A stretch of 64,000 nucleotides of DNA from Candidatus Latescibacterota bacterium (GCA_965219995.1 CBDCOX010000002.1:1504001-1568000); one strand, 5' to 3'. Counted from the stretch's first letter, positions 3,753 to 64,000 are shown. Notes: generated by a model not told the origin, from the sequence alone. Numbers and translations are program-made.

Positions 3753-4778
3753 TCAGGAGGAGTTTGCGACCGCTGATCTCAGGGCGTCATAGCACGCGTT
3801 CCAGCGGTCCAACTCGTCCCGGACCGTTTCTTCGTCACCCATTGAAGTCCAGCAGGTGACCCCGTGAATGAACATCAGCATCCGTTCGATTGCCAGGGCC
3901 GCCGTTTCCTCCTCCCGCCAGGCAGGTTTGCAGACCTCCCGGTACGATTCGAGGAATGCGGCTTCCACGTTCTCGTCCACAACTCGATATCGCGTTGATT
4001 CGCCCCAGGGCGAATCAGAATGCGGAGCCAGGTAGTACATCGATACACAAACTTCGAACACCCGCCGACCTATTGACGCGTGGCTGCAGTCAATAAACCA
4101 GAGGTTACTCTCGTGATCGATGATCATATTCTGGGGACTGGTGTCCAGGTGCAGACCGGTTTCGACCAGGCGCGGTCGAAGCCTGTCGATCGCTTCGACG
4201 CAGCGCTCTGTATCCTTTACGTACGTGATAAACTGATCGTGAAATGCACTTCCTCCGGTTGAATCCCGCATCTTCCGGACGTTCGCCTGCAACCTGTTGA
4301 CAGCAAGATGATTCATGGTGAGACGTTCTTCGCCCGGCAGGTCCCGATATCCGACGCCTGCACTGTGAAGACGGGCAATTTCAGCCCCCGCCAGACGAAC
4401 GTCCGATCCAATCCCCTTCTTCGGCGACCTTCCCTCAACGAATGGAAAGACCTCGACAATCATCCCCTGCTCTTTCGTCAAAAAGGTCTTCCCGTCAAGT
4501 GACTGCAACGGAAGGACGGTTCGTACGCCGAGATTACTCAGGTGCATCTGGAATCGATGTACCTGTGAAAGACGACGAGCCAATGACGATGAACCCTCTG
4601 AGTTTCGCCCTGGATCGGATACCCGCAGGACGTAGGGTTTTCCGGTATTCCGGCACGCGATCCTGACAACATGGGCAATCTTGCCGCTCATGTCGCGATA
4701 TTGCCCATCCCAGACAATACCATAATTCCAATAGAGCCACTCGGGATCCGGAAGCGCGTCGCTCGGGCTCAACGCCAT
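3753..4778 (-). CDS. APH/homoserine kinase type II-like phosphotransferase
   Basis: IARLH, HLDTSPQN and FIDC kinase motifs. Confidence 0.85.
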   Translation of the reverse strand: MALSPSDALPDPEWLYWNYGIVWDGQYRDMSGKIAHVVRIACRNTGKPYVLRVSDPGRNSEGSSSLARRLSQVHRFQMHLSNLGVRTVLPLQSLDGKTFLTKEQGMIVEVFPFVEGRSPKKGIGSDVRLAGAEIARLHSAGVGYRDLPGEERLTMNHLAVNRLQANVRKMRDSTGGSAFHDQFITYVKDTERCVEAIDRLRPRLVETGLHLDTSPQNMIIDHESNLWFIDCSHASIGRRVFEVCVSMYYLAPHSDSPWGESTRYRVVDENVEAAFLESYREVCKPAWREEETAALAIERMLMFIHGVTCWTSMGDEETVRDELDRWNACYDALRSAVANSS

Positions 4779-7569: not shown

Positions 7570-7737
7570 ATCCCCCACCGCATCAGCCATCCCCGACCCT
7601 TCGACACGCTTCGACAAGCACAGGGACCGAACTCAGGGATCGGCTCGGCTTCTGCGACTCCCCCTCAAGGGGGGAGTGATCGGCCTGTCAATCGGGCACG
7701 CGCAATCACTTCCACCTATTTGGTTGCGGTTGAACTA
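7570..7737 (+). repeat. Family E composite palindromic element copy 1, with doubly nested micro-element
   Basis: CCCCCACCGCATCAGCC..GGCTCGGCTTCTGCGACTCCCCCTCAAGGGGGGAGTGAT..CTATTTGGTTGCGG shared with 63728-63920. Confidence 0.88.
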
Positions 7738-22540: not shown

Positions 22541-22650
22541 TCATTGAGCTTGTCGAAATGCCAACGCTTCGCGACCCGTCGGCAGCACTTCGCCGACCCT
22601 TCGATCCTTCGACAGGCTCAGGGAGCGACTCAGGGAAAGGCGCTCGAGCG
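22541..22650. repeat. Cluster of TTCGACARGCTCA micro-elements, one nested
   Basis: CATTGAGCTTGTCGAAATG; CCCTTCGA[TCCTTCGACAGGCTCAGGGAG]CGACTCAGGG. Confidence 0.85.
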
Positions 22651-33471: not shown

Positions 33472-33612
33472 CCGTTTCGACACGCTCAATGACGGCGTTT
33501 CGACAAGCTCAACGAACGTCATTGAGCCTACTCTCTGAGGCTGTGACTCGAGAATCCTGCCGTGAACCGCTCCCTGAGTCTGTCGAAGGGACGGCGAGTG
33601 GCAGTCGAAAAA
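33472..33612. repeat. Cluster of TTCGACARGCTCA micro-elements in both orientations
   Basis: TTTCGACACGCTCAATG, CGTTTCGACAAGCTCAACG and TCCCTGAGTCTGTCGAAGGGA. Confidence 0.85.
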
Positions 33613-57390: not shown

Positions 57391-57597
57391 GTGTTTCGTC
57401 CCAAAAATTCCTCACCATTCGACCGGCAATTCATCCCGTCTATTGACGTTGCTTGCGCTGAGCTTGTCGAAGTGCCCTCGCTCGCCGACTATACGCATGT
57501 CGCCTGCACTCAGGCGCTGGGTCCTGAGCCTGTCGAAGGATGCGAGACGGGCGACTCGGCGGTCGAATTTAGGCAACTTATTTCCGGGACAGAACAC
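57391..57597 (-). mobile_element. Family A MITE, 207 bp, carrying two micro-element insertions
   Basis: Aligns to 31497-31659 except for +23 bp (57453-57475) and net +21 bp (57518-57540); intact CTAG at the left junction. Confidence 0.9.
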
Positions 57598-62581: not shown

Positions 62582-62809
62582 TCATCTTCCTTTGACAGTT
62601 TAGGGCGGAGATTGACCTTGATTCGTCATTCTTCCGGGACGTTAATTCGAATATATGCAAGCGAATAAAGACGATTTGACGTCGGATTTCCACGAACCTT
62701 CAGGTCACTGGACGTGAACAAAAAAAAATGTGCTTCCGGACGACCTTTACGCCCCGTTTCGAAAGTATTCTCCACAGTGTCGGCTTGCTGGATTTTTCGA
62801 TGCAAGGCA

Positions 62810-62955
62810 AATTGCCACAAGAGGCACAAAAACAGCTATTCTGTTACAGAGCGTATCGCCGAAAGACAAGGAAATACGTTCAGGGTCACGGCGTTACGAC
62901 ACACGCCGTTTCGCACCGATACCCTTTGTGTCTTTTGTGCTTTTTGTGGCCAATT
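62810..62955 (-). repeat. Family C element copy 2, complete with terminal inverted repeats
   Basis: AATTGCCACAAGAGGCACAAA ... TTTGTGTCTTTTGTGCTTTTTGTGGCCAATT. Confidence 0.88.
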
Positions 62956-63100
62956 TTTCGATTTTCTTTTTTTTAAATTGAGATTGATAGCTGTGGAGAT
63001 TTCCCGGTGCGCGAAATTCCGGTGGCTGCTGTTTGAAGGCCTGAATGCGCCGCGCCCGTCGCCTTCGAATTGGCGACCTGCACGGAAGTCGTGCGAATGT

Positions 63101-63556
63101 TCAGCCGGTCTTTCGCAGTTCAGCGTTCAGCCTGTCCAGGCTGTCTTTAGGCCATGTCTCAATCCTGTCATACCCCTTATCAAACTGAGGAACGTGGGCC
63201 GGCAGTCCGAGCCAGGCGTGCTTTTCCCTGGTCCAGATGTGTGCGTTAATTTCCAGAACCCTCAAATCGTCCAGCGTCTGCGACCGCAATAACGCCGTGC
63301 ATGGGTGATGAGTCGCAGTACTGTAGATCACATCCTCGCACGACTGGCAGATGAACGTCGTTCGATTCGCCGCGACAGACTTCGAGACGAACTCTCCCTT
63401 GTCGCACGTTACATCGGTTTCCAACACAATGATGGTAATTCCAAATGCCGAGCCGGAAGCCTTTTGACAGTCCACGCAATGACACGCATGCACAAAGAGA
63501 GGCGCATTCAGAAGTCTGTAACGCACCTCTCCGCACCGGCAGCCACCGGAATACAT
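63101..63556 (-). CDS. GFA (glutathione-dependent formaldehyde-activating) family protein
   Basis: GGCRCGEVRY, CHCVDCQKASG, FICQSC and HIW. Confidence 0.92.
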   Translation of the reverse strand: MYSGGCRCGEVRYRLLNAPLFVHACHCVDCQKASGSAFGITIIVLETDVTCDKGEFVSKSVAANRTTFICQSCEDVIYSTATHHPCTALLRSQTLDDLRVLEINAHIWTREKHAWLGLPAHVPQFDKGYDRIETWPKDSLDRLNAELRKTG

Positions 63557-63727
63557 ACGGTTCCCGTTCACCGAATCAACCGAAGGATTATGGTGAGTTA
63601 ACTGAGAAAATCGATCGTTTATCCGTATAGCAAGTTGCACTTAGACGGGTTTGAGTCTTGCAGTAATGCTTCTCTGAAAAATGCGTTCATGTTTCTTCAT
63701 GCTGTGTACAACAATCGATGTGCTGCG

Positions 63728-63920
63728 ATCCCCCCACCGCATCAGCCGTCGCCGGTCCTTCGACAATCCTTCGACATTTCGACAAGCTCAATGCAGGCAT
63801 GCTCAGGACAGTGGCTCAGGGGACGGCTCGGCTTCTGCGACTCCCCCTCAAGGGGGGAGTGATTCGACCCTAAGACGGGCTCGCGCTTTTGCAACGATCT
63901 ATTTGGTTGCGGCTGAACAC
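63728..63920 (+). repeat. Family E element copy 2, with triply nested micro-element
   Basis: Homologous to 7570-7737; three TTCGACA halves followed by three GCTCA halves. Confidence 0.88.
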
Positions 63921-63958
63921 CTCGAAACCGGGCTGGGTAACTTATCGCGGAAACCAAT

Positions 63959-64000
63959 GGTTTTGTTATATAACCAGTTGTATTTCAAGAAATTATGGGA
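63959..64000 (-). repeat. Family B element copy 6 (IHF-like end; truncated by window edge)
   Basis: GGTTTTGTTATATAACCAGTTGTATTTCAA resembles GGTTTTGATGTATAACGGGTTGTTTTTCAA. Confidence 0.6.

Follow-up and report, generated by a model that had tools for sequence, protein, structure and literature searches.

Hairpin ends, seamless removal and the lack of a target duplication are the marks of single-strand transposition as carried out by IS200/IS605 elements, and the miniature elements known to us are several-fold larger than the unit of 23-24 nt that is described here. In heterocyst-forming cyanobacteria, Elhai et al. in 2008 reportedly found mobile SDRs of 21-27 nt that showed compensatory changes and occurred nested or in heptamer tandem repeats, and that work is said to have named no associated enzyme. 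GIY-YIG homing endonucleases are either intron-encoded or free-standing, the phage T4 types being examples, and they cut a site that is then copied into. GIY-YIG enzymes are not known to form a covalent DNA intermediate. To our knowledge, the small GIY-YIG proteins of the UPF0213 type (~100 aa) are a very common orphan family with no known function. We know of no bacterial DNA element that is driven by a GIY-YIG nuclease, and of no defined mobile unit smaller than 23 nt.

The window analysed here is a stretch of 64 kb from a genome (G000) of 5.43 Mb with 60.6% G+C and a completeness of 98.6%. As listed in Table 1, it holds a three-level nest of short hairpin units within a larger repeat, called family E, and several further copies of the same motif. 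In the nest, the left half TTCGACA starts at 63759, 63770 and 63778, and the right half GCTCA starts at 63786, 63801 and 63814. A preliminary description of this DNA had named three left halves and three right halves with a stem for each pair, and reading of the sequence confirmed this. Removal of 23 nt by a script gave TTCGACATGCTCA, and the further removal of 24 nt gave TTCGACAAGCTCA, which reproduced the collapse to one 13-nt motif that had been proposed. Excision of the innermost unit joined TTCGA with CATGCTCA, and both of the 13-mers recovered from the nest carried a pairing 3-nt stem. The level-2 unit is itself 24 nt long (63767-74 plus 63798-63813) and is inserted at offset 8 of the outer host. 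The unit size, given at first as 21-24 bp, was corrected to 23-24 nt. The folding energy of the nested region had a z value of -1.05, and 32 of 200 shuffles folded equally well, so that folding energy lends no support to the 3-bp stems.

Table 1. Features of the window that carry the motif; positions are counted from the first nucleotide of the window.
Feature	Position	Strand	Composition or basis
Family E repeat, about 210 nt, multicopy, with the nest in its variable centre	63720..63933	+	Repeat search in genome and genus, paralog alignment
Whole three-level nest (outermost host unit, split after base 8)	63756..63821	+	TCC TTCGACAA ^ GCTCA GGG
Arms of the outer host	TCC 63756-58, TTCGACAA 63759-66; GCTCA 63814-18, GGG 63819-21		Direct reading
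Level-2 unit, split after base 5 of its own 13-mer	63767..63813	+	TCC TTCGA ^ CATGCTCA GGA, tail CAGTG
Innermost 23-nt unit	63775..63797	+	CAT + TTCGACAAGCTCA (63778-63790) + ATG + tail CAGG
Second copy of family E (C2:1511578), variable part of 58 nt	7578..7680	+	Degenerate two-level form at 7597-7641
Single unit CAT-13mer-ATG	22545..22557	-	Inverted doublet with 22597-22635
Unbalanced nest	22586..22635	+	Left arms TTCGCCGA-CCC and TTCGA-TCC; core TTCGACAGGCTCA; one extra right arm (AGCGACTCA GGG)
Tandem pair, 23 nt apart	33473..33518	+	13-mers at 33476 and 33499
Diverged third copy beside the tandem pair	33575-33587	-	
Two units	57459..57537	-	13-mers at 57459-57471 and 57525-57537

The pattern TTCGACNNGCTCA had seven matches in the window versus 0.11 expected, and none of 100 shuffles reached seven. 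When up to two mismatches were allowed, 13 matches were obtained versus 1.66 expected, and all of the sites listed in the preliminary description were recovered (5836, 7610, 22545, 22608, 33476/33499/33575, 38984, 57459 and 57525). The two-level nesting claimed at 7597-7638 and 22597-22635 held in part: the first site is a degenerate form, and the second is unbalanced, as three left arms face only two on the right. The stretch 22586-22635 was not scored as nested by the recursive parser described below. The sites at 33476-33591 are real, but they had been taken for single copies, and those at 33476 and 33499 form a pair in tandem.

Across the genome, the pattern TTCGACNN[AG]CTCA had 162 matches, of which 119 were TTCGACAAGCTCA and 23 were TTCGACAGGCTCA. 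The unit opens with a 3-nt stem, which is followed by the 13-mer, by the 3 nt that pair with the stem and by a tail of 4-5 nt, giving a total of 23-24 nt. Exactly three complementary flanking bases, with G-T counted as a pair, were found at 126 of the 162 copies. The stem triplets in the genome were CCC/GGG, CAT/ATG, CGC/GCG, CGT/ACG, TGC/GCA and CAC/GTG. The copies are mostly intergenic, as 29 of 147 lay in open frames of at least 300 codons and such frames make up 80.6% of the genome. The strand bias was mild (89 vs 58).

A deletion scan was carried out in which every stretch of 15-39 nt holding a 13-mer was removed and the joint was checked for a new 13-mer. A 13-mer was restored 192 times at a length of 23 nt and 87 times at 24 nt. 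At lengths of 15-22 or 25-30 nt, there were at most 6 restorations per length, and the peaks at 35-36 nt corresponded to jumps across two levels. A recursive parser set to 23/24 nt assigned 116 seeds to depth 1, 30 to depth 2 and 16 to depth 3 (46/162 nested), and with six control length pairs it found 0-7 nested seeds. Scan and parser thus bear out the earlier proposal that the unit sits inside its own 13-mer, because only the removal of 23/24 nt restores the motif. Insertion into the host 13-mer had occurred after base 8 at 34 levels, after base 5 at 21, after base 11 at five and after base 7 at two. All three stem positions were paired in 33 of the 46 hosts restored at level 2 and in 13 of the 16 restored at level 3. 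At C2:3755265, four left arms of 14 nt each are followed by four right arms of 9 nt each. The stacks are strictly hierarchical because the innermost 13-mer alone stays intact. Most of the depth-3 nests are copies of one composite. Many nested copies thus arose by propagation of composites, and the number of independent events is much smaller than that of the copies.

Part 1421-1634 of locus L153, which is the family E repeat, has further copies both in this genome and throughout the genus. By the length of their variable part, family E copies fall into classes of 34-37 nt (14 copies), 58-59 nt (five copies) and 81-82 nt (three copies). The outermost host of the window nest corresponds to a single CCC-TTCGACAAGCTCA-GGG in 14 depth-1 paralogs. 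In the class of 58-59 nt, different inserts were present at offsets 5, 8 and 11. At C2:3297132, the level-2 unit is uninterrupted at the same position and the innermost unit is missing, and the window copy and C2:3564967 have the identical three-level arrangement. Different inserts at different offsets among paralogs of one larger repeat fit insertion of the unit into its own core, as the preliminary description had suggested. In G001 and G010, family E was absent from the corresponding intergenic sequence, which cannot be aligned at this place.

Of the longer copies of family E, about half were irregular in length (43, 44, 47, 61, 66, 69, 72 and 91 nt) or had unequal arms, indicating that slippage or decay acts too. 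At C2:2883383, the left arm is doubled and the right arm is single (+8 nt), and at C2:1569 the reverse holds (+12 nt). Replication slippage might be the whole explanation: the left arms, repeating every 8, 11 or 14 nt, and the right ones, repeating every 15-16, 12-13 or 9 nt, would then be separate tandem duplications that were matched by selection for pairing, and nothing would have moved. The unbalanced arms at these two loci and at 22586-22635 of the window agree with it, and so do plain tandem arrays such as 33476/33499 of the window and those at the loci L369, L255 and L259. However, the arms are split as 8+15/16, 11+12/13 and 14+9 nt and their sum is constantly 23-24 nt, which is predicted by insertion of a fixed length and not by independent slippage. 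Furthermore, the innermost 23-mer of the window nest (CAT...CAGG) recurs in at least three other host contexts of the genome, which share at most the 13-mer halves. Slippage without any movement of a unit is therefore distinctly improbable, and the comparison of related genomes also speaks against it.

For this comparison, 800 kb of G010 were used, which is one of the two nearest relatives and is 85-98% identical and collinear. Between G000 and G010, each of the two flanks of C2:1631095 was 95% identical. The right flank of C2:1625325 was 100% identical over 271 nt, and its left flank was non-homologous. At both loci, G000 carries CCC TTCGA[CAT TTCGACAGGCTCA ATG/ATA CAAG]CAAGCTCA and G010 carries the uninterrupted CCC TTCGACAAGCTCA. 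The contrast of filled and empty sites named in the preliminary description was thus found, as G000 has a 23-nt unit where the 13-mer of G010 is intact. The difference is a single contiguous block of 23 nt, and the host bases are neither duplicated nor lost. The block is bounded by just 2 nt of microhomology, which counts against slippage. The precise presence or absence of 23 nt at loci with matching flanks is a firm observation.

All three copies were empty in G010. The more distant relative G002 was filled at C2:1625325, and G005 and G006 were filled at other loci. At locus a of the G000/G010 comparison, the element was absent from the remaining genomes. By parsimony, the best-resolved locus favours a precise loss in G010 rather than a gain. 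Gene conversion among paralogs, or repeated gain, could also have produced the pattern of filled and empty sites. The larger elements that bear the motif, including family E, were present in G000 and absent at the matching sites of G010 and G001.

Every one of the 15 genus genomes had the nested pattern with offset 5 (3-22 copies each), none of 26 genomes outside the genus had it, and the reversed control gave 0. The presence of nests in all 15 assemblies of the genus indicates that they are not an artefact of assembly. That the nests arose from misassembly of a repeat-rich genome is hardly credible, since the 15 genomes were assembled separately, seven of them as single contigs (G002, G008, G009, G010, G014 and others), two paralogs of family E share one three-level arrangement, and the nest of 66 nt is shorter than most sequencing reads.

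All 15 genomes of the genus were rich in the 13-mer, with 39-155 copies each. Sister genera had few copies (0-17), as did the neighbouring family (0-3), and only G024 with 40 copies and G038 with 17 stood out. G024 alone was rich in the motif within its genus (40 copies vs 0-2). The exact 19-mer CCC-13mer-GGG was found at no fewer than 116 loci of a species-level genome collection, and at least 120 viral contigs carried it. The titled records listed for the 19-mer belonged to Bacteroidota, Cyanobacteria, Actinobacteria, alpha-, beta- and gamma-proteobacteria, candidate-phyla-radiation groups, Acidobacteria, Chloroflexi, Planctomycetes, NC10, Binatia, Eremiobacterota and others. In other phyla, 71 of 93 non-seed 13-mers had at least three flanking Watson-Crick pairs, formed by 14 different triplets, and the shifted control gave 0/93. 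The claim of a conserved core with co-varying stems thus extends across phyla. Stems of 6 bp were read by eye in some low-GC contigs. A strict parser found nested forms outside the genus for 4/218, 1/207 and 3/107 seeds, and the controls gave 0-1.

Deep stacks were visible by eye in the Binatia locus L056. Tandem arrays of units were seen in the viral locus L369, with a spacing of 23 nt, and in L255 and L259, and the motif lay inside heptamer arrays in L019 and L006. There are low-GC contigs with the motif that look Bacteroidota-like, with a Por-secretion sorting tail in several of the neighbouring genes. As the 13-nt loop is identical from these Bacteroidota-like contigs to Actinobacteria and viral contigs, a wide horizontal spread is implied. 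The nested anatomy, the constant unit of 23/24 nt, the co-varying stems and the wide spread of the loop are all firmly observed.

Many of the proteobacterial copies are inverted doublets, each arm of which has its own complementary triplets, and the doublets form long palindromes that resemble terminators. This resemblance, the mostly intergenic position of the copies and the occurrence of the same 13-mer across phyla would agree with a hairpin that mainly serves the host or works as RNA, for instance as a terminator, a site bound by a protein or an RNA that regulates the nuclease gene. Such an element would be kept by selection and spread by larger repeats, and nesting would be a by-product. 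However, no relevant Rfam family was found in the whole window at gathering thresholds, in its part 63400-64000 at E <= 10 or, at E <= 0.1, in 12 related loci. The motif is also patchy among relatives (0-2 copies vs 40 in G024) and differs at matching sites, which a mobile element explains better, and an exact insertion of 23/24 nt into its own loop would stay unexplained. We regard a functional element as very unlikely.

The preliminary description had named small GIY-YIG nuclease genes of other bacteria as being flanked by the motif. The genome had two GIY-YIG matches, uvrC and one gene for a protein of 103 aa. As had been said, no such gene lies in the window; the small gene was found 1.6 Mb away, at C2:3166153-3166461 on the minus strand. 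The 103-aa protein matched PF01541 with an E value of 4.3e-18 over profile positions 2-76 of 78, and the nearest solved structures were those of the UPF0213 proteins 1zg2 (E 3e-15) and 1ywl. It thus has a full-length catalytic domain of the GIY-YIG superfamily and stands alone at ~100 aa, as UPF0213-type proteins do. It is a bare GIY-YIG domain, and no separate DNA-binding domain was detected in it. PADLOC and PHROGs gave nothing for the nuclease, and the model TIGR01453 for group I intron endonucleases scored 17.9 bits, the cut-off being 56 bits.

The motif lies 90-180 bp from this gene, the only small GIY-YIG gene of the genome, on both sides. The proposed link between the motif and small GIY-YIG genes held in the genome, in its relatives, in other phyla and in metagenomic homologues. 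Among 41 related genomes, homologues with at least 70% identity were found in G000, G005, G009 and G024, and 4 of 4 were flanked by the motif. G024, the one motif-rich genome of its genus, is also the sole holder of a close homologue there. Flanked homologues were also found in Binatia, Microbacterium, Rhizobacter (one side only) and Eremiobacterota, with 63%, 51%, 43% and 44% identity to the G000 protein, respectively. No flanked GIY-YIG gene was found in two of five other genomes with the motif (Sphingopyxis and NC10).

The metagenomic set comprised the best 80 homologues, with 58-76% identity, on contigs of 32-58% G+C, and a flank limit of 300 bp was used. Loop type A flanked 27 of the 80 and type B (TTCGAGNRCCTCA) 37, and 16 had neither. 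Type A had 94 hits in 45.5 kb near the gene and 13 hits in 191 kb farther out on the same contigs, which is an enrichment of about 30-fold. The C-terminal tails of the proteins differ between the type A and type B groups. When the 64 labelled proteins were placed on a tree, from which the 16 without a label were omitted, the A/B label changed three times versus a mean of 20.8 for shuffled labels, and 0 of 500 shuffles were as low; this tree has weak support, and labels are shared among related sequences. The specific association of the motif with one GIY-YIG clade is firm.

An enzyme of another kind might move the unit, for example an unrecognised single-strand transposase, host recombination or repair, or a phage protein, and the GIY-YIG gene would then be a passenger or a favoured landing site. 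G003, G004, G006, G012 and G014 have 79-154 copies of the motif, including nested forms, and no GIY-YIG homologue at E <= 0.001, and G002 has 137 copies and a homologue that is just 40% identical. The nuclease is therefore dispensable for the persistence of copies, and copy number does not track the gene. A small GIY-YIG gene is also lacking in G010, three copies of which are without the unit. The seamless removal without target duplication, which is typical of HUH single-strand transposition, the presence of the 19-mer in so many viral contigs and the strand bias, which fits a single-strand mechanism, would also suit another enzyme.

However, PF01797, the profile of the Y1 HUH transposase, had no match in the 98.6%-complete genome, and control genomes were matched. 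The enrichment is specific to the neighbourhood of one GIY-YIG clade: 0 of 26 more distant homologues among the 41 genomes had the motif within 300 bp, and 0 of 5 UvrC-sized GIY-YIG genes were flanked by it. The loop variant also follows the protein tree, which would not be predicted for a passive landing site. We consider another enzyme unlikely, and the nuclease the more probable of the two. A homologue was found at one of the at least 116 genome loci with the motif and at one of the at least 120 viral loci. Few such loci are expected if copies far outnumber genes, and this count adds no support.

In G000, the gene and its hairpins form a cassette of 780 bp between an ogt-like gene and uvrC, and G010, G001 and G007 have 10-43 nt at this place. 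In G005 and G009, the small GIY-YIG gene lies on the opposite side of the ogt-like gene. A short direct repeat at the 780-bp cassette overlaps the tail of the element itself. These sequence comparisons indicate that the GIY-YIG cassette, too, is mobile.

The explanation that we hold to be somewhat more probable than the others together is that the unit of 23-24 nt is a non-autonomous mobile hairpin and that its family is mobilised in trans by a UPF0213-type GIY-YIG nuclease of ~100 aa. The unit would enter the 13-nt loop TTCGACARGCTCA of another copy after base 5, 8 or 11 and would also leave it precisely. Repeated events would give strictly nested stacks in which only the innermost loop is intact. 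The unit would be the smallest member of a multi-phylum family of hairpin repeats, which also occurs as REPIN-like doublets and as a passenger in larger repeats. The nuclease is predicted to recognise the loop within the hairpin and to cut in or beside it, and its gene lies in a mobile cassette that has these hairpins at its borders. The steps that we infer are the recognition of the hairpin, its cleavage by the GIY-YIG protein, and the copying and joining of the unit. As no covalent intermediate is known for GIY-YIG enzymes, rejoining would need host functions. A broader proposal, for which we see a little less than an even chance, is that UPF0213 GIY-YIG proteins serve as the 'transposase' of the multi-phylum hairpin family, with clade-specific loops TTCGACARGCTCA/TTCGAGARCCTCA, and that they mobilise their own cassette, the doublets and the 23-nt unit.

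If the link to the nuclease is true, a role is found for the orphan family of UPF0213 or small GIY-YIG proteins, and the enzymes that spread short bacterial repeats are of three kinds rather than two. A unit of 23 nt that is gained and lost seamlessly probes the lower size limit of mobile DNA. The units also create spurious open reading frames, shift gene starts, as in the ogt-like gene here, and hamper assembly and annotation.

In the open literature searched, neither the motif nor a link between GIY-YIG proteins and repeats was found. The motif string and its reverse complement had no match there. Searches for GIY-YIG with repeat, hairpin or mobile element gave organellar or phage topics only, those with MITE or repetitive element gave nothing relevant, and GIY-YIG tied to REPIN/RAYT in the relevant sense was not found among the matches listed, in which the terms came together only in a paper on a restriction enzyme. 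Papers on UPF0213, YhbQ and COG2827 contained nothing on repeats. PMC1839093 mentions three small copies for Caulobacter.

Compared with GIY-YIG homing endonucleases, the system shares the catalytic domain (PF01541) and the setting of the gene in a small cassette that some close relatives have and others lack. It differs in the presumed target, which is a multicopy hairpin repeat and not a single gene site. As in the single-strand transposition of IS200/IS605 elements and their miniature derivatives (PATEs), the family has hairpin ends and is removed seamlessly without target duplication, and as in these elements and in MITEs generally, its short non-autonomous copies far outnumber the gene. 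It differs from IS200/IS605 in that no TnpA (PF01797) was found, and its insertion points after base 5, 8 and 11 have no common preceding tetranucleotide, whereas IS200/IS605 elements insert 3' of a fixed tetra- or pentanucleotide. It also differs from MITEs, which have terminal inverted repeats and a target-site duplication, as no host bases are duplicated around the 23-nt unit and the only inverted repeat is the 3-nt stem.

The likeness to SDRs, as these are reportedly defined, lies in units of 23/24 nt, of which 46/162 are nested, in co-varying stems and in the heptamer arrays of L019 and L006. The difference is that the genome here has 60.6% G+C and that the motif is spread across many phyla.

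With REP/REPIN sequences, as they are described in PMC3116915, PMC3337134 and PMC3733652, the family has in common that it consists of short extragenic hairpin repeats, of which there are some 100 copies or more and which frequently form inverted doublets. The likeness to the REP/REPIN-RAYT system is that the associated gene is single-copy here and flanked by repeats, that protein clades pair with repeat variants and that both are lineage-specific. In contrast to RAYT, a Y1 HUH protein (PF01797), the protein associated here is a GIY-YIG protein of ~100 aa. The foot of the REP hairpin bears a conserved GTAG or CGTC tag according to PMC3733652, and neither tag was found at the stem foot in the unit sequences of this genome. 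The conserved part is the stem with its GTAG/CGTC tag in REP sequences and the 13-nt loop here, the stems of which are variable. Furthermore, the loop is common to many phyla and viral contigs, and the units nest in their own loop, in which they differ from REP/REPIN sequences. By our best reading, the unit is a REP/REPIN-like non-autonomous hairpin element, which the GIY-YIG nuclease would probably mobilise.

Throughout the genome to which the window belongs (G000), intact copies of the 13-mer loop carried A or G at position 8, and host 13-mers interrupted by an inserted unit very often carried T there (CATGCTCA after the insert). All four bases were found at this position across the genus. 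On the whole of contig C2, with replichores assigned by GC skew, the lagging-strand side held 89 motif copies and the leading-strand side 58; these copies are not independent of one another.

Metagenome loci such as L216, L227, L255 and L259 contained another version of the loop, TTCGAGARCCTCA. Compared with the motif of the window, positions 6 and 9 are changed from C..G to G..C. This variant formed hairpins of its own as well as tandem arrays with a period of 21–23 nt.

As the table shows, the G000 genome has a cassette of a small GIY-YIG nuclease gene (UPF0213 type) and flanking hairpins. The cassette gave the ogt-like gene a predicted start region different from that in the related genomes G010 and G001, in both of which the gap between the ogt-like gene and uvrC was 10 nt. 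Two other multicopy repeats flank the window locus (L153) in G000, and neither was present at the corresponding positions of G001.

Coordinates of the cassette, the multicopy repeats and the 19-mers (CCC, 13-mer, GGG)
Feature	Source	Position	Setting
GIY-YIG cassette, 780 bp	G000 contig C2	3165940–3166720 (= locus L123 1290–2070)	between ogt-like gene and uvrC
Multicopy repeat, about 365 nt	window	62615–62980 (= L153 316–681)	flanks locus in G000
Multicopy repeat, about 250 nt	window-equivalent	65140–65395 (= L153 2842–3095)	flanks locus in G000
19-mer	L019 (Chloroflexaceae MAG)	477–495	within or next to tandem heptamer repeats
19-mer	L006 (Leptolyngbyaceae MAG)	1212–1230	within or next to tandem heptamer repeats
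19-mer	L014 (Staskawiczbacteria MAG)	414–432	directly after putative tRNA gene 3' end

The neighbours of metagenomic GIY-YIG cassettes were counted as the largest open frame of at least 110 codons starting or ending no more than 900 bp from the cassette, with six frames from three duplicate loci excluded. In 27 of the 75 metagenome loci (range L185–L264), this frame was a type I restriction-modification gene with HsdS, HsdM or HsdR domains. A frequent neighbour of this restriction-modification gene was a Fic, RhuM or Bro-N gene.

The viral contig L369 contained a tandem array of three exact 19-mers (4018–4082) with a spacing of 23 nt, equal to the unit length of the window's hairpin element. 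The small dispersed repeats (SDR elements) of heterocyst-forming cyanobacteria reportedly occur among tandem heptamer repeats, the same setting as that of the 19-mer in the Chloroflexaceae and Leptolyngbyaceae genomes.
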